Shown here in pieces: positions 3 to 27,377 of a DNA stretch of 64,000 bases. The DNA comes from a virus, in the IMG/VR virus record IMGVR_UViG_3300031227_007858; one strand, 5' to 3'. Numbering within the stretch: the stretch's first letter is position 1; every line of letters begins with the position of its first letter. Under the pieces are notes generated by a model. The model searched no databases and was not told the DNA's origin. It saw nothing but the letters and a program-made list of their open reading frames with translations. The position numbers and the translations under genes were made by a program.

Positions 3-122
3 AATAGAAATTTAGTAGCAATGAGAAATGAGTTAACATATATAATGCAAAGAAGTTATTATTTTAGAGAGCAAGGGACAAATGAGCTTTTCAGTATAGA
101 CAGTAGAAGGGGGGTAAGCTGA
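3..122 (+). CDS. C-terminal fragment of an upstream gene; start lies outside the window
   Basis: Open frame runs from the window edge to a TGA at 120-122 that overlaps the ATG at 122 in a TGATG arrangement suggesting translational coupling. Confidence 0.3.
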   Translation, partial: NRNLVAMRNELTYIMQRSYYFREQGTNELFSIDSRRGVS

Positions 123-955
123 TGGGGCGTGGTACATGGGCGGTAGAAAAAAAGATAAGTGGTACCTGGACAGGAGATGGTAGTTTATACAGGCCAAATG
201 ACTCTTATTCCTTACCTAAATTGTCAACACAAACTAAAGTAGATTTAGCTGAGGGAGATAATGCATATGTAACTCCTTCTACAAAGTATTTAGACCAACC
301 TATGAGCTTTGCATGGTACTATGACGATGGTACTACTAAAACAAAAATAGATACATATATGGATAATCAAAATGATATTAAAATTACAGATGATTTAGGA
401 AATGAATTTGTAGGAAGATTTACTTCTATTACACCTACTAGATTACTTGGGCAATCTACTGAGAAATATGATATAAGAGTTATTTTTACAATAATGCCTA
501 TATTAGCTAGAGCGGTAGAAAATACTAATTTAATATGTAGATTAAATTCTTATTATGCACTTTCTGTTAAGAATCTAGTTTGTAGAGTAAATGTTTATTA
601 TATATCAAGCAGTAAGAATTTAGTTTCAAGAATAACAAGCTTGAAAGAAACTAGTAAGAATTTAGTTAGTAGAATAACAAGTAGAGTTATTACTGAGAAA
701 AATTTAGTATCAAGATTGAATGTTTATTATATTTCTACTCTTACTAATTTAGTTAGTAGAATAACAAGTTTAAAAGAAGTTAATAATAATTTAGTTAGTA
801 GAGTAACAGTTTCTTATGCTTCTACAACTACAAATTTAGTTTCTAGAATAACAGTTTATTATATCTCTACAACTAAAAATCTTGTGTCTAGAATTACAAG
901 TTTAAAAGAAACTAGTGACAATGTAGTAAGTAGAATAATAGTGGTGGCATTATAA
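122..955 (+). CDS. Tail-associated structural protein with a C-terminal array of 14-15-aa tandem repeats
   Basis: N-terminal 130 aa are globular. The C-terminal half holds about 9 alternating repeats (NLVSRITSLKETSK / NLVSRLNVYYISTxT). Stop overlaps the next ATG (TAATG). Confidence 0.55.
   Translation: MGRGTWAVEKKISGTWTGDGSLYRPNDSYSLPKLSTQTKVDLAEGDNAYVTPSTKYLDQPMSFAWYYDDGTTKTKIDTYMDNQNDIKITDDLGNEFVGRFTSITPTRLLGQSTEKYDIRVIFTIMPILARAVENTNLICRLNSYYALSVKNLVCRVNVYYISSSKNLVSRITSLKETSKNLVSRITSRVITEKNLVSRLNVYYISTLTNLVSRITSLKEVNNNLVSRVTVSYASTTTNLVSRITVYYISTTKNLVSRITSLKETSDNVVSRIIVVAL
527..955 (+). repeat. In-frame tandem DNA repeat array (about 42/45-nt units, ~9-10 copies) inside CDS 122..955
   Basis: Recurring aatttagtt(a/t)(g/c)tagaataacaag...-type units seen directly in the sequence. 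Two unit types alternate. Confidence 0.7.
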
Positions 956-3900
956 TGGGAAAAGTATTAACACAAACTATTCAAGATTATATCAGCAATA
1001 GAGATATACAAGTTACTTATATCTTTAAAGTAAATGGTATTGTATATTCTGATTATTTACAACCTGGTTGGACTATTAGCAGTGATATTGGTTTTGGTTC
1101 TATGAGTGCACTTTTTACGTTAAACAATAATTCTGAAATATTTAGTATTGGTGGAACTAGTGAAATTAAAGTTGGTGACTCTGTAGAGTTTATAGAAAAT
1201 TTTGGTAGTGACACTACTAATTGGGGTAGATTTTATGGTATAGTGGACCAAAGAGCTATTGATAAATCTAATAATTCTAGAACAATAACTTTAAATTGTT
1301 TAGATTATATTTCAGTATTAAGATATATGGATATAGATTTAGTTGTTGAAGGTGATAGAGTGGAAGTAGTAGAAGAAACTTTAGACCCAGTATATTTAGA
1401 CGCTCCTAATGACGATATGGCTCAACTTTATAATTTCGCTAATGATGCAATCGCTACCAAGCCTATACCTATTATTAGATTTAAAGATACTAATCATACT
1501 ACTAATGTAGATACTCAATATGACGGTTTTGAAATTTACTATGATACTGGACAGTTAAAATTAGGTACAGCTTTAAATGTGAAATATAATTATAGTGTTT
1601 TAGCTACTTACTCTTATTATATAAAAGGTAAATATGCTGAAGATATAATAGAAGAAATAATTAAAGCAGTAGATGGTTATGACAAATATTTATTTGGAGA
1701 AACATCTGCTGCTGATGTAGTAACTAACCATTTAACAACTACATATCAAGCCCAACAAGGAACAGGAATTCAAGATATATTAACACCTGCAATAAGTGAA
1801 ACAACTTTAACTATAGATACTACTTTAGCATCGGATGTTACTGCAGGAGATGTTAGTATTGTTTTGTCAGATGCTACTGGATTTCCAACAAGTGGCAGTG
1901 GTAGTGTTAATGGTGACCTTTTTACTTGGTCAGGAAAATCTACTAATACTTTAACAGGAGTTCCAGCTAGTGGTGCATATTCTTTATTTGCTCATAGCTC
2001 TGGAGATTATGTAGAGTATGAGAATACATATGCTATAGGTGAAGTATGGTATTTAAAATATTCTAACGTTACTAGTACTTTAATTACATCAGATTTTGAT
2101 TTACCTGGAAGTAGTACAGTAAGTTATCATTGTAAACGAGGAACAAGTGATGGGTCTTATATTATTTTAGATAGTGCTATAGGAATTGGAAATAGAATAA
2201 CTTGTACAACTAATTACACTTTTAAAACGCTTCAAGCATCTGATATAGAAATAAATAAAATGGTTTTTAGAAGTAGAGATGTGGATAATAGATTTGATGC
2301 TATTAATAATATTAGAGATTATTTAGCTCCTAATTATATCATTAGAACTCAAGGAGATAGTTTAATATGGTCATCTTATGTTACACAAAAATCTACTGCT
2401 GATTATGAGCTTAGATTGGTTCAGAGTTTAAATTATCAAGAAGATGAAGATTTATATACTAGAGTTTTAATGTGGGCTAAAAATAAAATACCTACAAATA
2501 TTATGTTTGGAGATGATGTAGATTATACTTCCGATACAGAAGCAGATTATACTGGAGTAGCTACTCAAGATGAGCTATCTTATTTTGGTGAAGAAAAATC
2601 TGGAGTTTTATCTACTTGGGCATCTAACCAATTAACAGAAGCAGAATTATTACATCAAACATCGACTCAAGAGCTTATAAACTATGTTGGAGATAAATAT
2701 ATTGGAACTGAGTATGCTAGTCAAGAGTCTACTGGATATCATGTGTTTGGAACAGTTATAAGTGATACTAGAGGTAAAATTATTTTAGGAGATATTGTGC
2801 CTGTAGTATATGTAAATGGAGTTCCTATTGATAATGGTGTTCATCAACAAACAGCTGTTCCAATAAAAGTAAAAACAACTACTAAAACTATTACAGAAGG
2901 TGGGGGTAAGAGTAAAAGTGTTAGTACTACTAGTTATTATTATTATAGTATTTTATTTCCACATACTTCTATAGTACCTAACCAACCAATTTATTTATAC
3001 GATAATAGTGGATTACTACAGCATACAATTGCAGCTAGTGATCCAAATGTGGATTATGCAACTGGAATTTGGACAATACCTGGTATAGAAAGAAATGATG
3101 TAGCAGAAGTTTTATCTACAGCAACTTATTATGTTTTATATTCTACTGATAAATTGCAGATAGAATATGATGATGTGATATTTAAAATTCATAGAAGTAT
3201 TTTACCAGAGCCAACAAATGTATCTGTTACAGCTACATTTGAGTATTGGGCAATAGCAATAGCTATACAAGATATAGATCATGTTGTAGATGGTAGACGT
3301 GATACACAGTTACAGTTAGAATTTTTTGGAAAACCAGTATCTAATTTTCATTTAGCAACTATAGATTTAGGAGCTACTTATGCTATTCAAGCTATTGATA
3401 TTGTAGGGGGATTTTTTAAACCTGACATTATGAGAAAATTTGATACAGGATTTAGTATGTCTATTGACTCATCTACTGATGGTGTTACTTATACTGCAAT
3501 CAGCGATAAAACTGAGAATGTTCAAGTAAAAGGTGGAGAGTCTTTATCATTAGAAGAAGAAGATTTAGGATGTGAGTTTGAAGCCAGATATTTAAAGTTT
3601 TCATTGCAAGAAGTAGATAAAATAAATTATGGTAGAGGTAGGTATGTAGTTGCTATAACAGAAATTTCTGTTTATAATAATATTATTATAGATTCTGCTG
3701 CTACTTTAATTCCAACAACTACTTTAACTTATAATGCTACTACTGGTGATACTAAAGTATATCTTACTAACACTGCAGTTTTTGCTAGTAGTGGTACAGC
3801 TTATTTTAATAAAGATAGTAATATGTCTTTTACTTATACTGGTAAATCTACAACTACTTTAACAGGATGTACTATTGGAGCTGGAGTATCAGGTACTTCT

Positions 3901-4242
3901 GGTCAGTATGTAACACAAAGTATAGTAGGAGATACTACTTTATATGATAATGAGGGATTGTTAGCTAGTTTGGGAGACCGTGTAACTAAAAAAATAATGA
4001 TTAGTGATAGAAATTTATTTACTCAAAGTGAGTTAGATATAATTACAAAAGCATATTTAAAAGAATATTATAAAAATCATAGTAAAGCTTCAGTGAATGT
4101 ATTGTATACACCATATTTACAAATAGGTCAAACAATTAGTTTGACAGATTCATATAATAATATAACTGATAAAAGTTATTTTATAGAATCTATTGGTGAT
4201 ATGGGTGGTAATTACAGTTTAACTTTAGCATATTATCCCTGA
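955..4242 (+). CDS. Large tail protein (host-specificity / baseplate / central fiber-like), 1095 aa
   Basis: Very long ORF in the tail module, rich in S/T/G/N. Sits directly upstream of tail fiber genes. No enzymatic motif recognised. Confidence 0.55.
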   Translation: MGKVLTQTIQDYISNRDIQVTYIFKVNGIVYSDYLQPGWTISSDIGFGSMSALFTLNNNSEIFSIGGTSEIKVGDSVEFIENFGSDTTNWGRFYGIVDQRAIDKSNNSRTITLNCLDYISVLRYMDIDLVVEGDRVEVVEETLDPVYLDAPNDDMAQLYNFANDAIATKPIPIIRFKDTNHTTNVDTQYDGFEIYYDTGQLKLGTALNVKYNYSVLATYSYYIKGKYAEDIIEEIIKAVDGYDKYLFGETSAADVVTNHLTTTYQAQQGTGIQDILTPAISETTLTIDTTLASDVTAGDVSIVLSDATGFPTSGSGSVNGDLFTWSGKSTNTLTGVPASGAYSLFAHSSGDYVEYENTYAIGEVWYLKYSNVTSTLITSDFDLPGSSTVSYHCKRGTSDGSYIILDSAIGIGNRITCTTNYTFKTLQASDIEINKMVFRSRDVDNRFDAINNIRDYLAPNYIIRTQGDSLIWSSYVTQKSTADYELRLVQSLNYQEDEDLYTRVLMWAKNKIPTNIMFGDDVDYTSDTEADYTGVATQDELSYFGEEKSGVLSTWASNQLTEAELLHQTSTQELINYVGDKYIGTEYASQESTGYHVFGTVISDTRGKIILGDIVPVVYVNGVPIDNGVHQQTAVPIKVKTTTKTITEGGGKSKSVSTTSYYYYSILFPHTSIVPNQPIYLYDNSGLLQHTIAASDPNVDYATGIWTIPGIERNDVAEVLSTATYYVLYSTDKLQIEYDDVIFKIHRSILPEPTNVSVTATFEYWAIAIAIQDIDHVVDGRRDTQLQLEFFGKPVSNFHLATIDLGATYAIQAIDIVGGFFKPDIMRKFDTGFSMSIDSSTDGVTYTAISDKTENVQVKGGESLSLEEEDLGCEFEARYLKFSLQEVDKINYGRGRYVVAITEISVYNNIIIDSAATLIPTTTLTYNATTGDTKVYLTNTAVFASSGTAYFNKDSNMSFTYTGKSTTTLTGCTIGAGVSGTSGQYVTQSIVGDTTLYDNEGLLASLGDRVTKKIMISDRNLFTQSELDIITKAYLKEYYKNHSKASVNVLYTPYLQIGQTISLTDSYNNITDKSYFIESIGDMGGNYSLTLAYYP

Positions 4243-4248
4243 TTTTTT

Positions 4249-5145
4249 ATGAAAAATTTTAAAGATAAAAATAATTCTAATTATAAGCATGGTAAATATT
4301 GTAAAAAATATTATTGTATTGATTGTAGAGATGAAATTAGTTTGTTAGCTGTAAGATGTAAAAAATGTCATAATGTTTACATAGGGATAAATAAAAAAAG
4401 TAAATGTAAAAATTATCGTAGAAATCCTATATGTATAGATTGTGGTAAAAGTTTAAAAAATAAATATGCTCAAAGATGTGTAAGTTGTTCTATGAAACAC
4501 ATTAGAAGGAATAAATTTTGGTCTGTTAATAAAAATAAAAAAATGAGAGAGGAACAAAAAAGAAAAATAAGTAAAACTAGAATTGAGCGAGGCGTTGCTA
4601 AAGGAAGTAAAAATCCTTTTTATAAGAAAGGCAAACCGAAATGTATAGATTGTGGTAAGCAATTAACAAATTACAATGTTAAACGTTGTAATTCTTGTGA
4701 AGTAAAAAGAAGATTTAAAGATTTAAAGTATAAAACAAATTGGTTTAAAAAAGTAGTTAAAAATATAAAGAAAAAACCAAATAAACCAGAAAAACTATTA
4801 AATAAATTATTAAACGATTTACTACCAAAAGAATACAAATATATTGGTAATGGTAATTTTTGGATAGCTCAATTAAATCCAGATTTTATAAATATCAATG
4901 GTCAAAAGAAAATCATAGAGTTTTTTGGTGATTATTGGCATTCTAATCCTAACAAATATATAGCTAATAATATAATGTATAATAAATTAAAAGCTAAGGA
5001 TATATGGAAAAGTGATAGAAAGAGAGTTAATACATTTAGTAAGTATGGTTATAAAACATTAATTATCTGGGAAAGTGAATTGGATGATTTAATTAAAGTA
5101 AGAAGAAAAATCTTAAAATTTAATAAAGTAAGGAGTAGAATATGA
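4249..5145 (+). mobile_element. Freestanding homing endonuclease: N-terminal CxxC zinc-ribbon repeats plus C-terminal Vsr-like (PD-(D/E)xK, DUF559-like) nuclease
   Basis: Three CIDCxxxxxxxxxxRCxxC units. C-terminal motif PDFININGQKKIIEFFGDYWH matches the Vsr pattern (DxxF...IFVDGCFWH). Paralogous to 19030..20106 and 42193..42909. Confidence 0.6.
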
Positions 5146-5666
5146 GACCAATGACAAATGATGTTAGAAAAAAGATAGTACAGTACATTAAAAATCGTAT
5201 TGATATTTCGCCACTAATTAAAGGTGTTGAGATTAAAGGTGAAGATTTTTCTAATGCTATTATTACAGAGTTTAATAGGTCAGGAGAAGATTTAAGCGGT
5301 ATTAATTTATCTCATGCTAAAGTTGGATTAGAGGGCAAAGTAAGTAATTTATCTAATTGTAAAATGCTTAACTCAGAGTGTGTAGGAACGATATTTTTAG
5401 GAGTAGTGTATTTAAGAAGATGTAAATGTGTTGGTTCTAATTTTAATTTTGCAACTTGTACTAATGTTGAATGGCAATACTCTGATATGAGACAATGTAC
5501 GTTTTGTGAGACATTATTAAGATTAGGAGTTAGTTATTTTTATAAAGCAATTGTTGATTTAAATTTATTTCAAGATTGGACTAAATATTTAAATATAAAT
5601 GTAAAATTTAAAAAAGTGGAGTTGAATGAAGCAATTGAACAAAAAATAATGGAGAGTGAGAAATGA
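5142..5666 (+). CDS. Possible pentapeptide-repeat protein
   Basis: Central region shows period-5 spacing of L/F/V (GINLS HAKVG LEGKV SNLSN CKMLN SECVG ...). Confidence 0.35.
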   Translation: MRPMTNDVRKKIVQYIKNRIDISPLIKGVEIKGEDFSNAIITEFNRSGEDLSGINLSHAKVGLEGKVSNLSNCKMLNSECVGTIFLGVVYLRRCKCVGSNFNFATCTNVEWQYSDMRQCTFCETLLRLGVSYFYKAIVDLNLFQDWTKYLNINVKFKKVELNEAIEQKIMESEK

Positions 5667-5801
5667 GTAAGGAAGATTTACAGAAAAGATTGGATGCAAC
5701 AATAAAATTAATAGCACAAACAGAGTCTGCCTACCAGCAAATGTTAGGTAGGAAATTTTGTTTAGAAGAGTTATTAATAGAAACAGAAAAAGGAAAAAAA
5801 G

Positions 5802-6179
5802 ATGAAAAAGAAGCTACAGGGACAGTATCTTAAAGAAATAGGAATTAGTTTTGTGTCATCTAAAAAATTAACTTCTAAAAAAGTACGTATTTTTGTGCAA
5901 GATATAGTTGGTGATTTAGGGTTAGAGATTGTTTCTTCTACTGTTAATGAATTAGCACCTGGATTTGATGTACTTACTACAATTAAAGAGTCATTTGTTT
6001 ATTTTGGTTATTGGGGTGAAACTAAATATTGTAGATTGATAGTATCGTCTTGTAAAGAGTTTTCTACTTTAAAACTAATGGATAGAGTTGATTATTATTT
6101 TCCATACGAAGGTAAAGTTTTATTTAACTCTCATAAAGATATTACAATTAAAGAAGAGGTTAAAAAATGCTTGAAATAA
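5802..6179 (+). CDS. speD: S-adenosylmethionine decarboxylase proenzyme, small bacterial/archaeal class (pyruvoyl enzyme)
   Basis: LAPGFDVLTTIKESFVYFGYWGETKYCRLIVSSC aligns with the SpeD/SpeH core F(A)[22 protein letters not shown](H)GYA..DV(F/Y)TCG, including the ES cleavage site and the downstream (T/S)C. Size is 125 aa. Confidence 0.55.
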   Translation: MKKKLQGQYLKEIGISFVSSKKLTSKKVRIFVQDIVGDLGLEIVSSTVNELAPGFDVLTTIKESFVYFGYWGETKYCRLIVSSCKEFSTLKLMDRVDYYFPYEGKVLFNSHKDITIKEEVKKCLK

Positions 6180-6853
6180 ATCCTATTAAATTAGATATGG
6201 GGCAAGAGTTAATGGAATTAGATTTAATATTTGAAAAAGATACTAAATTTCAGCAGGTGAAATTGTATAACAATAAAAAAGGTCAGTTAGTACTTACATT
6301 AGACTCTTTTATTCAATTTATTGAAGGAGAAGATGAACAAATTTATCACGACATGCTAACTAGACCAGCATTTGAGTTTAATCCTACATCTAGAAGATTT
6401 TTAATACTCGGTGGTGGAGATGGTTTAGTAGCTAGAAATATTTTTAAATTACAACCTAATGCTATTATTAGTTTAATAGATATTGATGATGAAGTAGTAG
6501 AGTTATGTAAAACTAATGAGAGAATTGTTAAAATGAATGAAAACAGTTTGGATAAATGTTTTATTTTAAATGAAGATGCTTTAAAATGGGTTCCTATTTG
6601 TGAAGCTACATATGACATGATTATTTTAGATTTTCCAGATCCAAATAGTGACGAGTTAAAACAGTTATATACAAAGAGTTTTATTCATAATATTATAGAA
6701 CTTCTTAATGATAAAGGAGTAATATCTATTCAAACTCATGATGATATATCTAATACTGTTTATAAGATAGTTAAAGAAGTTACAAATAAATGTGAGGTAG
6801 TAAGTTATAAAATGCCTTTTCTTAGTGGGGGAGTAATAGTAATCGGACAATGA
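6167..6853 (+). CDS. speE: Spermidine synthase / aminopropyltransferase
   Basis: Shows the hallmark ILGGGDGLVARN glycine-rich loop, IYHDML, DIDDEVVELCK, and the acidic DFPDP (DSSDP-like) segment. Four-base overlap with the preceding speD-like gene. Confidence 0.7.
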   Translation: MLEINPIKLDMGQELMELDLIFEKDTKFQQVKLYNNKKGQLVLTLDSFIQFIEGEDEQIYHDMLTRPAFEFNPTSRRFLILGGGDGLVARNIFKLQPNAIISLIDIDDEVVELCKTNERIVKMNENSLDKCFILNEDALKWVPICEATYDMIILDFPDPNSDELKQLYTKSFIHNIIELLNDKGVISIQTHDDISNTVYKIVKEVTNKCEVVSYKMPFLSGGVIVIGQ

Positions 6854-8619
6854 TGACATACAACAATTTATATCGGATGGTTGTAAACACTATCAGGAAT
6901 ATGACTAATTATCCTGATACAGATACTGGAATAAAACAATTAGCTAGAACTCAAGTGTTAGACCCTGTTATGATGACAGCTAGAGGGGCAGATGTAGATG
7001 CTTCTAATGTGTTAGGTTTAGTACATAATATTTTAATATCTACTTTTAATCCTAGAATTTTAAGTGGATTAATAGTAAAAGCTACTGACCCAACATCTTC
7101 TAATGTTACTATATCTGCAGGGCATGGTGCAGTAGGAATTAATATATATAGATTATCTAAAAGCCAAACTGTAAAAATTCCATTTGATAATAGTACATAT
7201 ATATTTTATGTTAACTTATATAGTGATGGTGCTAAAGTAGAGAGAACAACATCACCTGAGCAGTTAACTTTAGCTAAAATTATAGTTCCTAAACCAGGAA
7301 CTACTAGCAGTATTAAAGATGATGAAAGTGAAGATTATGAGTGGGACGCTTATATAATTAATTTAAAAGAAATAAAATTATATGGTAATAATAGAGGTAA
7401 ATTTGAAGAAAATAGTTTACAGTTTTTAAAGAATAATATAGGAGATATATTGGGAGATAATATTATAGGTAATATTACTCTTAATGAAAATTTAAAAGTA
7501 GTTAATGCTGCAAGTAGTTTAGAATTAAATAGTAATTCAATGTTGATAAAAGATTCTGATGAGAATGTAGTTGCTAAGTTTAATAGAGAAGGAACATTTT
7601 TTTATGATACTAATGGAATAGAGCTAGCTAAATTCTCTGTAGATGGTGCTAAAGTTGGTAATATAACAGTAACAAAAAATAGTATTGAATCTGGCAATTT
7701 CGCTAGTGGAACTTTAGGTTCTGGATTTCAAGTACAAGATAATGGAGATGCAGAGTTTAATAATATATTTGCAAGAGGTAAAATTGCTTGTTCTGTATTT
7801 GAGTATAATACTGTTTCCGCTATGGGAGGTAATTTATTAATAAGTCATGATGCAGATAAATTGGCTCAAGATATGACTGATAGTTCTACTGCTTTAATTA
7901 CAGATGGAGATGTTACTTTTGAAGTAAGTGATATTTTATGGTTAAAAGATGGTACTAATTCAGAATATATGACAGTGGGCACAGTTACTAGTGCAACTAC
8001 TTATGTTGTAACTAGAGCAAGTGGTGGCAGTGCTGTAGCTTGGACTACAGGAACTGCTATTGTTAATCTTGGTCAGTCAGCAGATGGTGGTATATATATA
8101 ACAGCTTCTGAGTCTAATGCTCCTTATATGTCAGTATTTACTCAGGCAGGAAGTCCTTGGAGTAGTCTTACTACTAAATTACGAGTAGGTAATCTTAATG
8201 GATTTTTAGGTTATAGCAGTGATAAATATGGTATAGCTATTGGAGAAACAACTAAATATTTAAAGTATGATTCTACTAATGGATTAAGAGTTGCAGGTCA
8301 TACTTTACTTGGTAGTTTAAGTATTTCAACTGGTGGATATATTAATTCAGGACAAAGTGCTTATGACACTGGAACAGGTTTTTGGTTAGAGTATAATAGT
8401 GCAACTCCTAGATTTAGTATTGGTAATGCTTCTGGTAACAAACTTACTTGGAATGGAACAACTCTTACTACCACTGGTGTAATAAATGCGACATCTGGCA
8501 ATTTCAGTGGAACAGTAACTGTTGGTTCTGCAGGTAAAGTTTATATAGATGGAGCAAATGAAGTAGTTAAAATTTATGACGCTTCAAGTAATTTAATGGT
8601 TGAACTAGGTAAACTATAA
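6850..8619 (+). CDS. Tail fiber protein (S/T/G-rich), 589 aa
   Basis: Composition and position in the tail module. Long G/S/T/N-rich segments typical of fibers. ATG overlaps the upstream stop. Confidence 0.55.
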   Translation: MMTYNNLYRMVVNTIRNMTNYPDTDTGIKQLARTQVLDPVMMTARGADVDASNVLGLVHNILISTFNPRILSGLIVKATDPTSSNVTISAGHGAVGINIYRLSKSQTVKIPFDNSTYIFYVNLYSDGAKVERTTSPEQLTLAKIIVPKPGTTSSIKDDESEDYEWDAYIINLKEIKLYGNNRGKFEENSLQFLKNNIGDILGDNIIGNITLNENLKVVNAASSLELNSNSMLIKDSDENVVAKFNREGTFFYDTNGIELAKFSVDGAKVGNITVTKNSIESGNFASGTLGSGFQVQDNGDAEFNNIFARGKIACSVFEYNTVSAMGGNLLISHDADKLAQDMTDSSTALITDGDVTFEVSDILWLKDGTNSEYMTVGTVTSATTYVVTRASGGSAVAWTTGTAIVNLGQSADGGIYITASESNAPYMSVFTQAGSPWSSLTTKLRVGNLNGFLGYSSDKYGIAIGETTKYLKYDSTNGLRVAGHTLLGSLSISTGGYINSGQSAYDTGTGFWLEYNSATPRFSIGNASGNKLTWNGTTLTTTGVINATSGNFSGTVTVGSAGKVYIDGANEVVKIYDASSNLMVELGKL

Positions 8620-9290
8620 TGGCTGTAGATTCAAAGAATTTAGTTTCTAGAATAGATATTAGATATGGAGATTTTACTAATTTAGTTTGTAGAGTAAATA
8701 AAGTCTCTAGATATGGATTAAAAGTGTATAGTTCAAAAGATTCAACTAAATTTACATTGATAACTCCAAAAGTAGCTACTGTTGTTAGCTCTGGTAGAGT
8801 AACAATGTCAGATAGTTTAATTAGTGGTTCTCCAGATACTTATGGCACAGTTATTGACTTACCAGGAACAAGTGCTATAGATAAAGATAATATTGGAGTG
8901 TTAGTATTTCCTGTAAACTTTACATATAAAATCACTAGCATTCAATATGATATAACTGGGGATGGCACTTATTTGCAGAATATAGGATATATGGATGATG
9001 CTCAAACTTATTATGAACATACTAAAGCTACAGGTGCTATGACTACTTGGGTAGCTGGAGACTTGTCAACTGGCGATACTAACGAATTTGACCATATAGC
9101 TGGAATGTTTCCAGTGGCTTTTTGGGATATTAAAGGACAATCTACATTTACAGAAGTATTGTTATTTGCAGCTACTTGTTATCTAATATATGATACTTCC
9201 GCCACAACTTATAGAAAAGTTTATACTATAGGTTCAGATGGAGTTTCTAAAATAGATTATGTAATTACATTAAAAAATTATGACTATTAA
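8619..9290 (+). CDS. Tail fiber / receptor-binding protein, paralog A
   Basis: Shares the TYG(T/V)xIDLPG...IGV(L/M)V core and the (S/T)xIDYVIxLKNYD C-terminus with the next two genes. N-terminus reuses the NLVSRI/NLVCRVN repeat motif of gene 122..955. Confidence 0.5.
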   Translation: MAVDSKNLVSRIDIRYGDFTNLVCRVNKVSRYGLKVYSSKDSTKFTLITPKVATVVSSGRVTMSDSLISGSPDTYGTVIDLPGTSAIDKDNIGVLVFPVNFTYKITSIQYDITGDGTYLQNIGYMDDAQTYYEHTKATGAMTTWVAGDLSTGDTNEFDHIAGMFPVAFWDIKGQSTFTEVLLFAATCYLIYDTSATTYRKVYTIGSDGVSKIDYVITLKNYDY

Positions 9291-15141: not shown

Positions 15142-16281
15142 ATGAAAAATACGAAAGTAAAAGAGTGGGAGTCTTGGTTTAATTCTTTCAATTCAGCTAA
15201 AGGATTATTGTATGCCCCATGGTATCAGGCGATTAAAGAGTGGAAAGATGGTAAAAGATTAGCTCCTTTGCCACCTGTAGAAGCAAGCTTAGACCCTATT
15301 AATGTATGTAATTTGAATTGTTCCCACTGTAATGCATCTAGATACTTGTTACATCCACCTAAAGATAGAATGATTAGAATGCCAGATGAGCACTATTTAG
15401 AACTTGTTAAATTCTTAGGAAATTGGGGAGTAAAGGCAATTTGTCATGGAGGGGGAGGAGAACCTACTATGCATACTGCTTTAGGTGAAGCTATGATTAC
15501 TGCTCAAAAATATGGGATGGAGAATAGTATTGCTACTAATGGTATTAATTTTGATGAAGAGTTAATAGATATAGCAGTTAATACTTGTAGATGGGTAGGA
15601 GTATCAGTTGATTCAGCTACTCCTAAAACATATAAAATAGGTAGAAGTGCAGACCGTTTTAGTGATACTATAGGTAATATTGAGAAGCTATGTGATGCTG
15701 TAGATGAGTTTAAAACTAATTGCGATATTGCTTATAAATTTTTAGTGTTTGAATATAATCAAAATGAAATATATGAAGCTTGTAAGTTAGCTAAAGAATT
15801 AGGAGTAAAGGATTTTCATGCTAGACCTGCAGATTTAAGTCATCAAGGAATGGATGAACAATATAAAGGAACAGCTCAACCTTATAGTATAGACTTAGTT
15901 AAAGAACAGTTTGAGAAGTGTCATGACCTTGAAGATGATAATTTCCACGTATATACTATTGTTCATAAATTTGATGAGAACTTTATACCTCGCAAAGATT
16001 TTTCTCAATGTTATGCATCTCCTTGTTGTTTACAGATATGTCCTGATGGATCATTGTTTCTATGTCCAGACCAGAGATATAAAGATTTCTTTAAGTTAGG
16101 AGAACATTACCCTGATGTAACAGAGATAAAAAGAGTTTGGGGTAGTAGGAGACATTATGATTTAGTATTTAATAGTGGTAGAAAAGCTTGCAGTACTAGA
16201 TGTACATTTAATACTTATTGTAAACAAGCAGAAGAATTATTTATGAATGATAATGATCCTATGTGTAAAAACTTTATTTAG
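15142..16281 (+). CDS. Radical SAM enzyme with a SPASM/twitch-like C-terminal Cys cluster
   Basis: CNLNCSHC (CxxxCxxC) near the N-terminus. C-terminal CYASPCCLQICPDGSLFLCPD. Confidence 0.7.
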   Translation: MKNTKVKEWESWFNSFNSAKGLLYAPWYQAIKEWKDGKRLAPLPPVEASLDPINVCNLNCSHCNASRYLLHPPKDRMIRMPDEHYLELVKFLGNWGVKAICHGGGGEPTMHTALGEAMITAQKYGMENSIATNGINFDEELIDIAVNTCRWVGVSVDSATPKTYKIGRSADRFSDTIGNIEKLCDAVDEFKTNCDIAYKFLVFEYNQNEIYEACKLAKELGVKDFHARPADLSHQGMDEQYKGTAQPYSIDLVKEQFEKCHDLEDDNFHVYTIVHKFDENFIPRKDFSQCYASPCCLQICPDGSLFLCPDQRYKDFFKLGEHYPDVTEIKRVWGSRRHYDLVFNSGRKACSTRCTFNTYCKQAEELFMNDNDPMCKNFI

Positions 16282-16843: not shown

Positions 16844-17025
16844 GTGACCGTAAAATATTTTTTAAATGTCCATGTGGAGCAAAGATAGAAAAAGAAATAG
16901 GGTATGATAAATTTGTTTGTGAAAATTGTGGTATGGAAATTAAATTTATCTATAATCCTAAAGAACATCTATATGAAATGGAGATAGTAAATGCTGGACA
17001 GCATAATAATACAACAGCAGCATAA
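16840..17025 (+). CDS. Zinc-ribbon mini-protein
   Basis: CPCG...CENCG. Confidence 0.3.
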   Translation: MSDRKIFFKCPCGAKIEKEIGYDKFVCENCGMEIKFIYNPKEHLYEMEIVNAGQHNNTTAA

Positions 17026-17521
17026 AGATAAAGCAAAGTATATCTTTAAACATATTAAAAATAAAGAAATAATTTCTATAGGTGGTGGCTCCGGTACAGG
17101 TAAGACTGAAGTTGCCTTATGTTTACAAGATTTATTTTTAAAAAGAAAGAAAAAATATCAAGTAATAAGTGAAGATAATTTTTATAATACTCATTGGAGA
17201 AATAGAAATAGAGTAAGAAAGCTAAGAGGTATTATAGGATTACAAGAAATTGCTTGGGAAGAATTAGAAACTGTTATTGGAGTATATAGAAGATTGCCTT
17301 GCTATGATGGAGTAATTGTAGAAGGTTTATACACTAATTATATTCATGGTAAAGATATAGGAATTTTCTTAGAAGGAACAATAAAACAAACAGATAAATT
17401 TAGAAGATTACGTAAAAAAGAATTTCAAACTAAATTTAGACAGCAAGTATTACAAGTAGAATATAAAGAATTAAATAGAACTAAAGCACTAGCTGACATA
17501 GTGGTGCCTTGGAAAATATAA
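16991..17521 (+). CDS. P-loop kinase, uridine kinase / phosphoribulokinase / pantothenate kinase-like family
   Basis: Walker A IGGGSGTGKTEVA, followed by a VISEDNFY segment resembling the Udk VIPEDCYY segment. Confidence 0.45.
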   Translation: MLDSIIIQQQHKDKAKYIFKHIKNKEIISIGGGSGTGKTEVALCLQDLFLKRKKKYQVISEDNFYNTHWRNRNRVRKLRGIIGLQEIAWEELETVIGVYRRLPCYDGVIVEGLYTNYIHGKDIGIFLEGTIKQTDKFRRLRKKEFQTKFRQQVLQVEYKELNRTKALADIVVPWKI

Positions 17522-17536
17522 TGGCTTCCCCAAGCC
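17520..17536. repeat. GC-rich hairpin (stem GGCTT/AAGCC, loop CCCC) overlapping the ATG at 17521
   Basis: The sequence ATGGCTTCCCCAAGCC stands out as a rare GC island in an AT-rich genome. Confidence 0.5.
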
Positions 17537-18066
17537 TAAGAAAATGGAGGAACAAAGTGGAAAAGAAAGACGTAAAAAAGGCATACTCAGATGCCGAGAA
17601 AGAACTGAGAAACAAACAGATTGAAGAAGTAAAAAATATTGTTAAAGCTACTCTTGAAAAGATTGAAGCGTTAAAAGATAGAAAAAAGGATATTGAACAA
17701 GAGATAAAGATACTTAAACTAGACTTAGACAACTTTAAAGATGGTAGACTTGACCTTGTTGAAGAAAGACAAAAAAAAGATAAAAAAGCTAGTGAAGTAT
17801 CAGTTGTAAAGGTAATTAAAGAGGTTGAACATCATCATTATTATGATAGATGGTATGAACCTTATAAGATTTACTGGTATCCATCAACGATAACTGTTCA
17901 ACAAGATTTTACATCAGATGGCACATTTTATTGTAATGGGACAGATACTGCTTCAATTGCTAATTCAACTAACAGTGGTAGTTGGACAACTATTAATTGT
18001 TCAGTAGCAAAATATGCTTCACCTGGAGCATATAGTGTTGCAGGTTCAATTACAAATTTTAAATAA
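17521..18066 (+). CDS. Coiled-coil protein with a C-terminal globular domain
   Basis: K/E-rich heptad-like N-terminal 90 aa. The supplied ORF starts at 17509, but the ATG at 17521 sits inside a GC hairpin. Which start is used remains unresolved. Confidence 0.4.
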   Translation: MASPSLRKWRNKVEKKDVKKAYSDAEKELRNKQIEEVKNIVKATLEKIEALKDRKKDIEQEIKILKLDLDNFKDGRLDLVEERQKKDKKASEVSVVKVIKEVEHHHYYDRWYEPYKIYWYPSTITVQQDFTSDGTFYCNGTDTASIANSTNSGSWTTINCSVAKYASPGAYSVAGSITNFK

Positions 18067-18072
18067 TTAAAT

Positions 18073-18089
18073 ATGGCTTGGGGAAGTCT
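18073..18089. repeat. Partner GC-rich hairpin (stem GGCTT/AAGTC, loop GGGG), complementary to the 17520 hairpin
   Basis: ATGGCTTGGGGAAGTC. GGCTTGGGGAAG is the exact reverse complement of CTTCCCCAAGCC at 17525..17536. Confidence 0.5.
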
Positions 18090-18107
18090 TTTTATAAAGG
18101 AGTAAAC

Positions 18108-18479
18108 ATGGAAAGAGATTGTGGCGATATAATTGATAGAGGGGCGATTGCACAGTTAAAGCATGAACGTATTGGTAACGATGAGAATAATAAAGAATAT
18201 AAAGCATTTAAACAAGAAATTGATTTAGTTATTTCTAAATATCCAGATATACCTATCTCAAAGTTTTTTAATTTATTAATAAAAATTAATGCTATGATAT
18301 GGGATTTAGAATCTGATTTAAGAAAAGGAAAATTGGATGGAGCTTTATCAGAAGTAGGTAGAAGAGCAATTGAAATTAGAAAACACAATAATTTAAGAGT
18401 ACAGGTAAAAAATATTGTGAATGAATTAACTAAAACAGGTTTCATTGACATAAAAAGTGACCATCTTTCGGAGAATTAA
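18108..18479 (+). CDS. Hypothetical protein
   Basis: AAGGAG RBS 6 nt before the ATG at 18108. The supplied ORF begins at a TTG at 18078. Confidence 0.4.
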   Translation: MERDCGDIIDRGAIAQLKHERIGNDENNKEYKAFKQEIDLVISKYPDIPISKFFNLLIKINAMIWDLESDLRKGKLDGALSEVGRRAIEIRKHNNLRVQVKNIVNELTKTGFIDIKSDHLSEN

Positions 18480-18481
18480 TA

Positions 18482-19033
18482 ATGACTACATTAGCGAGAC
18501 TTGAAGAGTTAAATAAAGAATATACAAGCATAGTTGGTACTGATTTTATTCAACAGCATTTGGAAGAAGTTGCACAAGTAGTTGACCATATAGGAGACAA
18601 GAAGTTTAGTTATTATGTAGATATAGGACTTGCTCGTGCAGGAAGTGTCTGGCTATATGCTAATACTGTATGTGAGTCAGGGGCAACTCTTTTAGGTATA
18701 GATGTTGTTGTAACAGTGGAAGCTTTAAAAGCTTTAAAAGTTTTAAAAGAAAGAGGTTTTACTATTGATACTATACAGAGACCAGCTATTAGATGTGTAG
18801 CTGATGTGAAAGATGACATTGAATTATTACATATAGATGCTCAACATAGCTATGCTGCTGTTAGTGAAGAGTATTGGGCTTATTCTAGAAAAGTTAAAGA
18901 TGGTGGCGTTGTTTTGTTACATGATACAATGCTACATGAAGGTTGTATTAAATTTAGAGAAGAATTAGAAAGAGAAGGTAAAAATATTAAAACTTTTGGA
19001 GACTCACTTGGAATCTCATTAATAAGAATATGA
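18482..19033 (+). CDS. Class I SAM-dependent methyltransferase (Methyltransf_24 / TylF-MycF / CmcI-like)
   Basis: LLHIDAQHSY ... GGVVLLHD matches the (L/F)IDxDHxY ... GG(I/V)xxxDD pattern of this family. Paralogs at 25525 and 33862. Confidence 0.5.
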   Translation: MTTLARLEELNKEYTSIVGTDFIQQHLEEVAQVVDHIGDKKFSYYVDIGLARAGSVWLYANTVCESGATLLGIDVVVTVEALKALKVLKERGFTIDTIQRPAIRCVADVKDDIELLHIDAQHSYAAVSEEYWAYSRKVKDGGVVLLHDTMLHEGCIKFREELEREGKNIKTFGDSLGISLIRI

Positions 19034-20106
19034 AAAAAGTAAGTTTTTTATTAACTAAAGAATTTTTATTGAAGGAATATATTTTAAACAAAAAATCTTT
19101 TAAGAAAATAGCTCAAGAATTAAATATTTCTTCATCAAGTATAAAAAGATATTTAATTTATCATGATATTAAAATAAGGAGTGTATCTGAATCTCTTAAA
19201 GGACATACTCCTTGGAATAAAAATAAAAAAATTGGAATAATTCCAAAATCTGCTTTTAAAAAAGGGAATATTCCTTGGAATAAAGATTTAACTAAAGAAA
19301 CAGATAAACGGGTATTTAAAAACGCCCAAAAAATTTCTAAAGCTCTTAAAGGGCAAACTTCTTCTCAAAAAGGTAGAATTTATGTTCCTAGAGAGATTCG
19401 CTATTGTGCTTGTGACTGTGGTCAGAATTTTGAATGTAGAATAACTGATACAAAGAGATATATAAAGAATCATCAACCAAGGAGAATGAATTTAAGGCCT
19501 CCTCAATATGCAATAGATAATTTAACAAAATATGTAAAAGAGAATATGAAAAATCATCCACTTTCAGAAGAACATAAGAAAAAAATAGGAGATAGTAATA
19601 GGGGTAAAAAACGTTCTGAAGCGGCAAGATTGAAAATGAGTAAATCAGCTAAAAATAAGAAAGTATCTGTGGAAACCAGAAATAAATTATCTTTGAGTTC
19701 TAAATTAATGTGGGCCAAAGAAGAAATAAGAAATAAAATTACAAAAGCTGTTTTAAAAGGATTAAAAATAAAACCTAATAAACCAGAAAAGCTATTAAAT
19801 AAATTATTACAACAAATATTACCAAAAGAATATAAATTTGTGGGAGATGGAAAAGTAATAATAAATGGTTTTAACCCTGATTTTGTGAATGTAAATGGTC
19901 AGAAAAAAATCATAGAGCTATATGGAGATTATTGGCATAACAGAAAAGAGGTTATAGAAAGAGATGGAAGACGATTAATTGCTTACAAAAAATATGGTTA
20001 TAAAACATTAATAATTTGGGAACATGAACTAAAGGATTTAGATAAAATTAAAAAAAGAATAATGGAGTTTAATAATGTCAAAAGTAATTTTAATAAAACC
20101 CAATGA
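19030..20106 (+). mobile_element. Freestanding homing endonuclease: NUMOD3-like repeats plus C-terminal Vsr-like nuclease
   Basis: G(N/H)IPWNK...K(A/G)LKG NUMOD3-like units. C-terminal KPNKPEKLLNKLL...NPDFVNVNGQKKIIELYGDYWH...YGYKTLIIWEHELKDL is near-identical to 4249 and 42193. Confidence 0.6.
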
Positions 20107-21313
20107 TATTTTACAATATCAAAATCTTAATCATTTAAAAGCCATTGAACCGCCCATGTGGTTAACGATTTTAGCAAATTATTTTAAATCGGAAAAAATT
20201 ATTGATATGTCTGCACTAAATTTATCTATTATAGAAACAATTGAACAAATAATACAATATAAACCAGATAAAGTAGTGTTATTGAGTACTGGAAACCATC
20301 CAAGTGCATACATACAGTCTAGGGCTCAAATAGAGCGTATAGGAGACATGTTACGAGCATTAAATATAGAAACTGATACTTTATACAGCTTACCAATTAA
20401 TCCTATGGATTATGAATCTCCTAGATGGGATTTATTAGATATGAGTAAATATAGGGCTCATAATTGGCACTGTTTTGGAGGGTTAAAAAGAAATAACTAT
20501 GGTGTTGTTTATAGTAGTGTAAGTTGTCCGATGAAATGTGAATTTTGCAACATTCATAATTTTTACATTACTCCTTATAAACAAAGAGATGTAAATGCAG
20601 TATTAAAAGATTTTCATGATTTATATAGTCAATATGGAATAACTAATTTTAAAATAATGGATGAGTTATTTGTAACTAAAGCTAAAAGAACTTACGAGAT
20701 ACTTGATGGACTTAAAGATATAGGTGATAAAATAAATATTTGGACTTATGCTCGTATAGATACTGTAGATGAGAAGTTATTAAAAGAGTTGAGAGCTGCT
20801 GGTATTAGATGGCTATCTTATGGTATTGAGACAGGTAATGATGAAATAAGAAAGAGTATAATGAAAGGACAGTTTACTAAAGATGACATTAAAGATATTG
20901 TGCAAATGACTAAAGATTGTGGAGTAAATATTATAGCTAATTATATGTTTGGATTTTGGGACGATAATTATAATACTATGAGAGAAACATTAGATTTTGC
21001 TAAAGATTTAAATTGTGAGTTTGCTAATTTTTATGCAACAGTAGCTTATCCTGGTAGCAAGTTTTTTGATGTAATGAAAGAGAGAGGAGTAGAGTTATCT
21101 GATGATTATAACGATTATGCTCAATTTAGTAAAAGTTTTAAACCATTACCAACAAAACACTTAACATCTCAAGAAGTATTGGAGTTTAGGGATAAAGCTT
21201 TTCAAGATTTTTTTACTTCTCCAAAATACTTGTCAATGATGAAACAAAAATTTGGTAATGGGGTTATTGATGAAATTAAACAAATGACAAAAATTAATAT
21301 AAAAAGAACATGA
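20075..21313 (+). CDS. Radical SAM enzyme with an N-terminal B12-binding-like domain (class B-like)
   Basis: CPMKCEFC (CxxxCxxC), preceded by about 150 aa with the Rossmann-like pattern of B12-binding radical SAM proteins. Confidence 0.65.
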   Translation: MSKVILIKPNDILQYQNLNHLKAIEPPMWLTILANYFKSEKIIDMSALNLSIIETIEQIIQYKPDKVVLLSTGNHPSAYIQSRAQIERIGDMLRALNIETDTLYSLPINPMDYESPRWDLLDMSKYRAHNWHCFGGLKRNNYGVVYSSVSCPMKCEFCNIHNFYITPYKQRDVNAVLKDFHDLYSQYGITNFKIMDELFVTKAKRTYEILDGLKDIGDKINIWTYARIDTVDEKLLKELRAAGIRWLSYGIETGNDEIRKSIMKGQFTKDDIKDIVQMTKDCGVNIIANYMFGFWDDNYNTMRETLDFAKDLNCEFANFYATVAYPGSKFFDVMKERGVELSDDYNDYAQFSKSFKPLPTKHLTSQEVLEFRDKAFQDFFTSPKYLSMMKQKFGNGVIDEIKQMTKINIKRT

Positions 21314-21840
21314 TAATATTAACACCAGAAATATTAATAAATGAAGGAATTAAAGAGACATTTAAGAGATTTGACGTTGCTATGATTTATTTAGTAATTG
21401 ATAGATATTTAAAAAATGAAGATAATCCATTTGAACTATATGGTAAATTACAGCATTTAAGAAACTCTAAAAATTTTGAAAAAAAATCAGAATGGGAATT
21501 AAATTTATCTCATGGAATTGATTGTATTAAACAGTATATTAAATTATTCAGTAGAGAAAAAAAATCTGTTAATTTAGTTAGAATGGATAGAATAGACACT
21601 GCTACTTTAACTAACCCCCCTATTCAAATATCCAGAAATCTGAGATTAGTAAATGGCTCTCATAGATTAGCAAATTTTTTATATTTTAAACATGGAGAAA
21701 TAGAAGCTAGAATGGATGGCAGTGAGGTACCTCCATCATTTGGATTTCAAATTAATTGGTTAGAAAAGTATTTTACTAAAGAAGAACAAGAACAAGTATT
21801 TAGTATAATAGAGAGAATAAAAAAAGATTATGGATTTTAA
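21310..21840 (+). CDS. Hypothetical protein
   Basis: No motif recognised. Confidence 0.35.
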   Translation: MIILTPEILINEGIKETFKRFDVAMIYLVIDRYLKNEDNPFELYGKLQHLRNSKNFEKKSEWELNLSHGIDCIKQYIKLFSREKKSVNLVRMDRIDTATLTNPPIQISRNLRLVNGSHRLANFLYFKHGEIEARMDGSEVPPSFGFQINWLEKYFTKEEQEQVFSIIERIKKDYGF

Positions 21841-22432
21841 AGAATATAGTAAATATAAGAGGTGTTTTGTTATAGGTAATGGTTCTAGTTTAAATGAAAT
21901 GAATTTAGATTTATTAAAAGATGAATTAACTATAGGATGTAATTTAATTTGTAAAAGTGGTTTTGTTCCAAAGTTTTTATGTGTATCTGATTCTGACAAT
22001 TTTAAAACGCAAGAAGAGTTTCTACCCTTTAATACTAATTTTGTGTTTGCTTCTCCACCATGTATAGTATCAGATGATATAAAATGTCGTAAAGTTGCAT
22101 TGAAACAGGAAGAATCTATGTTAGATGCTATAGAATTAGATAAAGATTTTAACAAAACATATTGGGCAAGAAATGTAATTATAGAGTTATGTATTCCATT
22201 AGCAAATTATCTTAATATCAAAGAAATATATTTAATTGGAATTGATGGGATTAAAAAAGATAACTATAGTCATTTTTATGATACTGTAATTTTACCAACT
22301 AATACTGATTTTGTACCTTATTATAATAAAATAAAAGAGTTGTATAATGGAACTATTTACGATTGTACTGTTGATGGTTATTTAACAATGTTTGAAAAAA
22401 GAGATTATTTAGAGGTACTAAATGGAAAATAA
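21830..22432 (+). CDS. Cst-II/Maf-like transferase (GT42 / DUF115-like), paralog 1
   Basis: N-terminal CFVIGNGSSL...LTIGCN resembles Cst-II MKKVIIAGNGPSL...FRCN. Later KEIYLIGIDGI resembles Cst-II KEIYLSGIDFY. Confidence 0.5.
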   Translation: MDFKEYSKYKRCFVIGNGSSLNEMNLDLLKDELTIGCNLICKSGFVPKFLCVSDSDNFKTQEEFLPFNTNFVFASPPCIVSDDIKCRKVALKQEESMLDAIELDKDFNKTYWARNVIIELCIPLANYLNIKEIYLIGIDGIKKDNYSHFYDTVILPTNTDFVPYYNKIKELYNGTIYDCTVDGYLTMFEKRDYLEVLNGK

Positions 22433-23081
22433 ACAATTAACATCTGGAATTATATATGATGTATTACACACTACTTTAAAGTATAACAAACCATTTGTTT
22501 TAGATAGAAAAATAAAACCAGCTTGGAGTTTTAATACTCATCTTTTTGGTCAAGTATTTACATGTAAGGGTAAGTTAGTGAGACATTCTCATTTTTTAGA
22601 CGATACAATTAGATTAAAAATGCTATCTAATATATCTGAAGATAATAGAGTAATGGTTTACGATACTGATAGATACTATGATGTAGCACATTTTGGTGAT
22701 ATAACTGCTGCTATAGCTCAAAAAAAGGGCTGTAAAGGAGCAGTAATAGATGGGTGCACTAGAGATATAGAAGGAATTGAAGAACTTAATTTTCCAATTT
22801 TTTGTAGAGATATTTTACCTATAGACTCTTTCGGTACTTGGCAAATAATAGATTATAATTGTGAGATAATCTTACCTGCTATAGATGGTAGAGTGGTAGT
22901 TAAACCTAATGATTGGATATTTGGGGATAGAGACTCAGTACTTATTATACCAGAGAAATTAGTAGATACAGTGCTTGTAGAATCTGAGAAGCAATTTGAG
23001 GCAGAAGAAAGACTTAAAACTAAAATATTAAATAATAACATAGATTTAATACAAGCATATGGAGAGGAGAATATACATTGA
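22422..23081 (+). CDS. RraA-like / MenG-family protein (4-hydroxy-2-oxoacid aldolase-type fold)
   Basis: FGDITAAIAQKKGCKGAVIDGCTRDIEGIEELNFPIFCRDILPI...IDGRVVVKPNDWIFGDRDSVLIIP matches the RraA-family GD..A..A...G..G.VIDG..RD..EI.E..FPVF core. Confidence 0.5.
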   Translation: MENKQLTSGIIYDVLHTTLKYNKPFVLDRKIKPAWSFNTHLFGQVFTCKGKLVRHSHFLDDTIRLKMLSNISEDNRVMVYDTDRYYDVAHFGDITAAIAQKKGCKGAVIDGCTRDIEGIEELNFPIFCRDILPIDSFGTWQIIDYNCEIILPAIDGRVVVKPNDWIFGDRDSVLIIPEKLVDTVLVESEKQFEAEERLKTKILNNNIDLIQAYGEENIH

Positions 23082-26750: not shown

Positions 26751-26793
26751 AAACAAAGAGAGGAAGATAGTTAGCTAGAAAGGGAGGCAGTAA

Positions 26794-27066: not shown

Positions 27067-27108
27067 ACAGAGAACAATCTTCCTCTCTGTATATAAAGGA
27101 GAAATAAT

Positions 27109-27363: not shown

Positions 27364-27377
27364 TAAGTGAACAAATT

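Follow-up and report, generated by a model that had tools for sequence, protein, structure and literature searches.

The gene pair and its place in the tail operon

A 64,000-nucleotide stretch of viral DNA (IMG/VR record IMGVR_UViG_3300031227_007858; hereafter, at its full length, the window) was analysed around two overlapping plus-strand genes, one resembling genes for S-adenosylmethionine (SAM) decarboxylases (SpeD-like; 5802-6179; 125 amino acids, with the AdoMetDC class 1b fold) and one resembling genes for spermidine synthases (SpeE-like; 6167-6853; 228 amino acids, a minimal aminopropyltransferase), which an initial annotation of the window had described as a polyamine synthesis pair. 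Both open reading frames (ORFs) were present on the plus strand where that annotation had placed them. The window is AT-rich (GC content of 25-33%), with plus-strand genes up to about 34.3 kb and minus-strand genes beyond, and the pair lies within a tightly packed plus-strand tail operon in which adjacent genes share overlaps of 4-32 nt. The SpeD-like and SpeE-like ORFs overlap each other by 13 nt and the SpeE-like ORF overlaps the next tail gene by 4 nt. Plausible ribosome-binding sites precede both start codons, AAAGGA before the ATG of 5802-6179 and AGAGG before that of 6167-6853. Scans for promoters and terminators returned sites no more common than in shuffled sequence and gave no sign of a separate transcription unit.

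The pair forms part of a three-gene cassette, the first member of which (5142-5666, plus strand) codes for a pentapeptide-repeat protein of 174 amino acids (Pfam Pentapeptide, 23.1 bits). The upstream boundary of the cassette is a 1095-residue tail protein (955-4242, plus strand) whose orthologs are 53-82% identical and which follows the tape-measure gene in L001 and relatives; the tape-measure gene itself was seen in L001 (PhageMin_Tail) and would lie upstream of the window, the first ORF of which (122-955, plus strand) encodes 277 amino acids. Downstream, the cassette is bounded by a tail-fibre or tail-tip-like gene of 589 codons (6850-8619, plus strand), at the position of which the ORFs of relatives give faint matches to Phage_Tail_Tip and Collar. 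Between the pentapeptide-repeat and SpeD-like genes, a small plus-strand ORF of 56 amino acids (5663-5833) overlaps both neighbours and is shared by the window and its close relative L185 (88% amino acid identity; ratio of nonsynonymous to synonymous substitution rates, dN/dS, of 0.13); an ORF of 65 amino acids takes its place in L014, and the other lineages are without it. A further plus-strand ORF of 298 amino acids (4249-5145), zinc-ribbon/endonuclease-like and with PHROG endonuclease matches, lies between the tail protein and pentapeptide-repeat genes in this phage only, relatives having other small ORFs or none there, and is probably a homing endonuclease gene.

The SpeD-like gene is found directly upstream of the SpeE-like gene in eight lineages (the window, L185, L012, L014, L016, L023, L181 and L183), in all of which the order is tape-measure gene, one or more ORFs, tail protein gene, pentapeptide-repeat gene, SpeD-like gene, SpeE-like gene and a large tail-fibre-like gene. 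The ORFs after the tape-measure gene encode about 130-320 amino acids and are mostly single, with two in L181, L185 and, together with a NUMOD3 ORF, L014; the tail protein upstream of the trio measures about 1040-1330 amino acids across lineages. In all lineages examined, an ortholog of the pentapeptide-repeat gene lies close upstream of the SpeD-like gene (or of the SpeE-like gene). Identity across lineages is 46-79% for the SpeE-like and 41-86% for the SpeD-like proteins, and dN/dS against the closest relative is 0.10 for the SpeD-like gene, 0.29 for the SpeE-like gene, 0.17 for the pentapeptide-repeat gene and 0.16-0.18 for the flanking tail genes; both the SpeD-like and the SpeE-like genes are under purifying selection. 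In L181 (6379-7656), the SpeE-like reading frame continues into a C-terminal domain of an HNH homing endonuclease, the in-frame fusion encoding 425 amino acids in total.

In the more distant L237 (6992-13993), a 1279-residue ORF comes directly after a tail protein 42% identical to that of the window, and all three genes are missing there, so that the trio is regarded as an inserted accessory cassette which came into a fixed slot of the tail operon, was kept there and is not core structural material. Structural tail components were also considered as the principal interpretation of the genes and were rejected, since L237 has the same tail genes without the cassette and since the catalytic residues are conserved.

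Among IMG/VR viral contigs, 142 carry some SpeE relative, the tail-operon type being present in only three, and canonical SpeD adjoins SpeE in a few others (L032, L034 and L069). No match in 50,697 phage records was obtained either by DNA similarity with positions 4000-9000 or by tblastn with the SpeD-like protein, and the cassette is therefore absent from the cultured and deposited phages represented there. The SpeE-like protein matched three of these records only, with a spe cluster in one of them, 'Microcystis phage MaAM05' (L011, GenBank MW495066), in which speH_2-speH_1-speE-speB (3868-6646) have guaD and purL as neighbours, together with a gene for galacturonate synthase; this cluster resembles cellular DNA and may be host sequence under a phage label. 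A search of 185,579 species genomes returned no phage-type SpeE-like gene and no clue to the host, the best cellular match having at most 41% identity, and no later report of such a cassette was found in the literature.

Family, fold and conserved residues of the two proteins

The SpeE-like protein matches Pfam Spermine_synth (PF01564) with 95.8 bits, where the gathering score is 22.9, and is well ahead of any methyltransferase family there; MTS, which ranks next, reaches 31.3 bits. Its five best NCBIfam matches are all to polyamine aminopropyltransferase or speE models. It stays under every NCBIfam equivalog cut-off (score/cut-off in bits: PRK03612, 160.3/472; PRK00811, 131.9/260; TIGR00417, 111.5/249.55), and of the 522 positions of the PRK03612 model, its top match, only those of the catalytic part (229-432) are covered. 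In the PDB, 26 solved aminopropyltransferases were matched with E values down to 1e-21, the best matches being Pyrobaculum calidifontis SpeE and the Thermus thermophilus triamine/agmatine enzyme. The AlphaFold2 (AF2) model, computed from an alignment of 36 homologs, has a predicted local distance difference test score (pLDDT) of 93.9, and the top 50 matches of this model in a Foldseek search of the PDB are all aminopropyltransferases (TMq 0.77-0.86; 62-70% of the target covered). The Pfam score and the PDB matches bear out the spermidine-synthase signature loops that had been noticed at 6167-6853, and in its Pfam, NCBIfam, PDB and fold matches the protein groups with aminopropyltransferases and not with unrelated Rossmann methyltransferases. 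Judged by its sequence, it is clearly a member of the aminopropyltransferase family in a minimal form; with 228 amino acids it is among the family's smallest and could define the minimal catalytic unit.

The motifs that characterise the family are present as Y60-H61, G82-G-G-D85-G, D105-I-D107, D137 and D155-F-P-D158-P, and Q50, E57, Y60, H61, G82-84, D107 and D155 are invariant over the 36 homologs, D85 being nearly so. From structures of the Thermotoga maritima and human enzymes, these residues are presumed to bind decarboxylated SAM and to deprotonate the attacking amine. The Asp of the GGGDG motif disfavours SAM itself and selects decarboxylated SAM. The N-terminal beta-hairpin/oligomerisation domain Spermine_synt_N (PF17284) gave no match in the Pfam scan; in the model, residues 19-52 form four N-terminal strands and residues 1-18 are predicted as disordered.

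The SpeD-like protein is far more isolated. Its single sequence found no match in the PDB, a word-index search yielded six relatives only, an exhaustive profile search of 1.84 billion representatives returned only 35 proteins at E ≤ 0.001, and PHROGs gave nothing useful for this or the SpeE-like protein. However, a profile made from 24 clade members alone matches only AdoMetDC structures in the PDB (2iii, 1.2e-5), and 34 of the 35 sequences of the family and its outliers match Pfam AdoMet_dc individually. The AF2 model (pLDDT 93.6) superposes on T. maritima AdoMetDC with template modelling (TM) scores of 0.74-0.80 and a root-mean-square deviation of 2.3-3.0 Å, and the top five Foldseek matches, to 1vr7, 1tmi, 1tlu and 2iii (TM 0.68-0.80), share its alpha-beta sandwich. 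Homology to class 1b AdoMetDC and possession of its fold can be taken as secure on these sequence and model comparisons.

Around the cleavage site, alignment of the T. maritima enzyme with the window protein places, free of gaps, E62-S63 on E63-S64, W70 on W71, E72 on E73 and C83 on C84, in agreement with the Glu-Ser self-cleavage context that the initial annotation had reported. The autoprocessing serine, the loss of which the initial annotation had set as a refuting condition, is retained: S64, the putative pyruvoyl precursor, and C84 show no variation in any of the alignments, among them A2, which has 35 sequences with outliers, and are kept among sequences down to 22% identity. The residue before the Ser is Glu, as in bona fide AdoMetDCs. 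In a neighbour-joining tree, the SpeD-like clade is separate from canonical SpeD, from the phiN3/speH1 group and from the HTVC201P arginine-decarboxylase group, and by inspection of motifs it shares S-C-K with the phiN3/speH1 group. The tree was built without characterised SpeDC members, and tblastn with a speH1-type query retrieved no reference sequences of the ornithine decarboxylase (ODC) type.

A proposed two-enzyme route and its alternatives

The pair is read here as a late-expressed two-enzyme route that would lead from SAM through decarboxylated SAM to spermidine or a close analogue by way of a His-less decarboxylase, an interpretation to which a probability of roughly 0.55 is given; a clade of uncultivated AT-rich tailed phages most likely carries the pair as an accessory polyamine cassette in its late (tail) operon. 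In the proposed mechanism, the 125-residue protein with the class 1b AdoMetDC fold would cleave itself between E63 and S64 to generate a pyruvoyl group and would decarboxylate SAM with C84 as the proton donor, and Asp56, opposite position 69 across a beta-hairpin, would take over the role of His68 of the T. maritima enzyme. The 228-residue protein would bind decarboxylated SAM via Asp85 of GGGDG and the ribose-binding Asp105, and Asp155, Tyr60 and Asp158 would serve to pass the aminopropyl group on to a di- or polyamine, in the simplest case converting putrescine to spermidine, with release of methylthioadenosine (MTA). Since translation of the two genes is coupled to that of the tail genes, their product would be expected late in infection, at DNA packaging, when there is demand for both counter-ions and translation capacity. 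Phage replication requires polyamines, which also act as counter-ions for packaged DNA.

Several observations weigh against this interpretation. Characterised enzymes have a first N-terminal hairpin and a C-terminal extension that are missing from the SpeE-like protein, and in a by-eye alignment this protein has Leu at what we take to be the position of the acceptor-pocket Tyr241 of human spermidine synthase; because of the shortened terminal segments and this Leu, the acceptor is uncertain, and it cannot be read from the sequence. In L022 (6498-7660), the SpeE-like gene comes directly after the pentapeptide-repeat gene and a SpeD-like gene is absent from that position, so that the transferase can do without the SpeD-like protein at least in this lineage. 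The window SpeD-like protein scores 21.9 bits (E 2.3e-4) with Pfam AdoMet_dc (PF02675), under the gathering score of 25, and 13.1 bits with the NCBIfam model SAM_DCase_Bsu (TIGR03330), the cut-off of which is 75.65; of the two Pfam models proposed for checking the pair, Spermine_synth thus recognises its protein and AdoMet_dc falls short. At the position of His68 the window protein has Gly69 and at that of the Pro of TWPE it has Gly72; at the His68 position each of the 25 clade members has G, S or N, and His is found in all eight references, which comprise four phage enzymes with assays in PMC9992855, two enzymes from the PDB and the pair of speH genes annotated in MaAM05. Finally, AdoMetDC homologs of phages have repeatedly proved to be arginine or ornithine decarboxylases (PMC9992855).

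The significance of these substitutions follows from work on the T. maritima enzyme, in which S63, H68 and C83 are reported to be essential for processing and catalysis; His68 is reported as conserved across AdoMetDC, arginine decarboxylase (ADC) and ODC homologs, and one Pro, which we infer to be that of TWPE, as present without exception in bona fide AdoMetDCs but missing from ADC derivatives (PMC10407285). The Pro position is variable within the clade (G, P, A, Q, Y, E or K). The SpeD-like protein is thus not the typical small AdoMetDC that had been expected at 5802-6179, being without His68 and the Pro and belonging to a clade of its own, and for these reasons decarboxylation of AdoMet is proposed from the pairing of the genes and not from the sequence of the protein.

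The absence of His68 from every member of the family, the reported requirement of the T. maritima enzyme for this residue in processing (PMC10407285) and a sequence-model score under the threshold would also suit a SpeD-like protein that is neither processed nor catalytic and acts as a regulator or as a partner binding SAM or decarboxylated SAM, like the AdoMetDC prozyme of trypanosomatids. Such a role is considered quite improbable, since an invariant pyruvoyl Ser and catalytic Cys, down to 22% identity, are hard to explain without chemistry at that site, purifying selection is strong (dN/dS 0.10), and the loss of His covaries with an Asp or Glu at the facing position.

The facing position, corresponding to T. 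maritima Ser55, is S or T in 8/8 references and Asp or Glu in 24/25 clade members, and in the predicted hairpin, formed by strands 54-61 and 64-71, residue 56 pairs across the strands with residue 69, which makes Asp56, opposite Gly69, a candidate for compensatory relocation of the general base. It can be proposed, tentatively, that the clade is a mechanistic variant in which serinolysis and decarboxylation proceed without His and with a carboxylate on the opposite strand instead, and that the three-gene cassette is a dedicated late-expressed unit, the polyamine or aminopropylated product of which would serve the virion or DNA packaging and not metabolism in general. Three small AdoMetDC-like proteins outside the clade of the window (P0087, P0089 and P0091) are likewise without His68 (N or G) and have Asp at the Ser55 position, so that this pairing of a missing His with Asp may have more than one origin. 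With the cassette, nature provides a way to ask if pyruvoyl formation in the AdoMetDC fold really depends on His68; should the enzyme prove active, the accepted set of catalytic residues would be revised and wider sequence criteria would apply to such metagenomic decarboxylases.

The same residues bear on a second explanation, in which the SpeD-like protein would be a neofunctionalised pyruvoyl ornithine or arginine decarboxylase that feeds the acceptor (putrescine or agmatine) to the SpeE-like protein, the host supplying decarboxylated SAM; with arginine as the substrate, the pair would yield N1-aminopropylagmatine, as happens in the Thermus route. Phage AdoMetDC homologs with such activity are documented and the ADC forms can be told by their loss of the conserved Pro (PMC9992855, PMC10407285), and the window family has no conserved Pro at that position. 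By motif reading, SCK is common to the family and to the clade of phiN3 SpeD; the SpeE-like protein finds its best structural matches in a triamine/agmatine aminopropyltransferase, that of T. thermophilus, and in the P. calidifontis enzyme; and the transferase of L022 exists without a SpeD-like gene. However, the neighbour-joining tree sets the family apart from the HTVC201P ADC clade, and the family keeps Glu-Ser like bona fide AdoMetDCs, where the ADC and its relatives have Thr-Ser. AdoMetDC is, moreover, the obligatory partner of an aminopropyltransferase, whereas the published neofunctionalised forms keep His68, which the window family does not, and are recognised, according to PMC10407285, by having no SpeE partner. 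On balance, this explanation, the foremost of the alternatives, is judged unlikely, although less so than a prozyme-like role.

The fixed slot of the cassette, between tail genes and beside a pentapeptide-repeat gene in eight lineages, would be explained if the SpeE-like protein aminopropylated something other than a polyamine, be it a sugar, a nucleotide-sugar, a virion protein or the pentapeptide-repeat protein, as a modification of the surface or virion. The N-terminal segment that in canonical enzymes covers the acceptor pocket is shortened and is modelled with low confidence (pLDDT 54-78 at residues 1-20), and the genome has genes for NeuB, CMP-sugar synthetase-like proteins, an aminotransferase, glycosyltransferases, APS kinase, a sulfotransferase and four radical-SAM proteins. 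Even so, the residues with which spermidine synthases bind and deprotonate the amine (Y60, D155 and D158) are all kept, and we know of no aminopropyltransferase of this family that acts on sugars or proteins. L237 has the same tail genes without the cassette, which is thus not needed to build the tail, and the fusion in L181 is only to a homing endonuclease and to no structural domain. There is accordingly little likelihood of a non-polyamine acceptor, and transfer to a di- or polyamine is preferred.

Other genes of the window and known systems

MTA released by the proposed route could be salvaged by an MTAP-like phosphorylase of 217 amino acids (28113-28766, plus strand), which scores 120.5 bits with PF01048, contains an N-terminal GIIVGSG and an SRHGQQH motif, and has MTAP models as its top five NCBIfam matches, the score with TIGR01694 (224.8 bits) being under the cut-off of 274.85. 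The gene lies between those for APS kinase and a transketolase-like protein, in a large sugar-modification region. A metK gene for SAM synthetase (59849-61897, minus strand) matches TIGR01034 in two stretches (475 bits against a cut-off of 309.4) and contains the N, M and C Pfam domains. Its coding sequence is interrupted by an insertion of about 320 amino acids placed exactly between GHGGGAF and SGKDPTKVDRS, which starts with Cys and ends with ...VTGN followed by Ser, and which gives a weak match to LAGLIDADG_3 (E 5.8e-4); from its sequence the insertion looks like an intein with a homing endonuclease, which would have to splice out. The phosphorylase and the full metK of the initial annotation are thus both present, the former under its equivalog cut-off and the latter interrupted.

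Four radical-SAM ORFs (15142-16281, 20075-21313, 38253-39644 on the minus strand and 46880-47671 on the minus strand) were confirmed, as had been noted, and four methyltransferase-domain ORFs were counted in the window where five or more had been claimed. The MTAP-like and metK genes lie 22 and 53 kb from the pair, metK being in the early-gene region, and IMG/VR scans for MTAP returned no contigs and those for metK 47, none of them with the cassette, the contigs that carry the cassette being fragments. A coordinated SAM economy, as had been suggested, therefore goes beyond what co-occurrence in one genome conveys, the genes not being co-localised with the pair and the scans not having returned the contigs, themselves partial, that carry the pair; that the phage both consumes and regenerates SAM is a reasonable proposal resting only on this shared genome.

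A sugar and modification toolkit extends over about 17000-35500 on the plus strand and 34311-64000 on the minus strand of the window. It includes genes for NeuB (33011-33865, plus strand), a DegT aminotransferase (34311-35504, minus strand), APS kinase (27577-28116, plus strand) and a sulfotransferase (63396-63995, minus strand), and in addition two CTP_transf_3 genes, an RmlD-like gene, glycosyltransferase genes, a split E1_dh/Transket_pyr gene, an acyl-carrier protein gene and the four radical-SAM and four methyltransferase genes named above, a combination which suggests that a modified, possibly sulfated, sugar of the nonulosonic-acid type is made. At about 34300 the GC skew and the AT skew switch sign where the two gene arms converge (the plus-strand arm ends at 34335 and the minus-strand arm at 34311). 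The minus-strand arm at 34311-55700 holds five YopX-domain ORFs, a ClpP protease, a Band_7 protein and a glyoxalase-family ORF, and a tRNA-Trp(cca) gene (38207-38285, minus strand) overlaps the 3' end of a B12-binding radical-SAM ORF. Further HNH/NUMOD3 ORFs are found at 19030-20106, at 58269-58742 (minus strand) and at 62340-62795 (minus strand).

Compared with the AdoMetDCs of T. maritima (1tlu, 1tmi and 1vr7) and Aquifex aeolicus (2iii), the SpeD-like protein shares the fold (TM 0.68-0.80), the Glu-Ser pair, the Cys and W-x-E at 15-17% identity, and differs in having Gly for His68, Asp for Ser/Thr55, Gly for Pro71 and Lys for the Gly after the Cys. With the phage ADC/ODC forms (pelagiphage HTVC201P; SpeDA/SpeDC) it has in common a small AdoMetDC fold, loss of the conserved Pro and divergence from canonical SpeD; those forms, unlike the window protein, retain His68, have Thr-Ser (HTVC201P), are not paired with SpeE and fall in another clade of the tree. 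The SpeE-like protein carries the same motifs for binding of decarboxylated SAM and for catalysis as the T. thermophilus aminopropyltransferase (1uir and 3anx) and P. calidifontis SpeE (7xif), to which it is 26-29% identical (E 1e-21 to 4e-20; TMq 0.84-0.86); it is about 60-85 residues shorter than these enzymes, the first N-terminal hairpin and the C-terminal extension being the parts that it is without.

AdoMetDC genes are common in phages, and a pair of AdoMetDC and spermidine synthase genes has been recorded in one phage only, an uncultured freshwater member of the Caudovirales, the clustered genes of which restored spermidine in Escherichia coli mutants (PMC9992855; Li et al., PNAS 2023). 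As in that phage, a speD-type gene adjoins a speE-type gene in a tailed phage, the decarboxylase is of class 1b, and the two would form a module by which putrescine is converted to spermidine. The published pair is gamma-proteobacterial-like and was shown to be active, whereas that of the window is known here from its sequence. Unlike its counterpart, the SpeD-like protein of the window belongs to a separate clade without His68 and the conserved Pro, the SpeE-like protein is truncated to 228 amino acids and has PRK03612-type catalytic domains as its nearest cellular relatives (at most 41% identity), and the pair keeps a constant place in a tail operon, accompanied by a pentapeptide-repeat gene. 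If the proposed route is correct, the cassette, kept in eight lineages and under purifying selection, would be a second, independent and evolutionarily stable phage module for making spermidine from putrescine, in an unexpected place within the tail operon.

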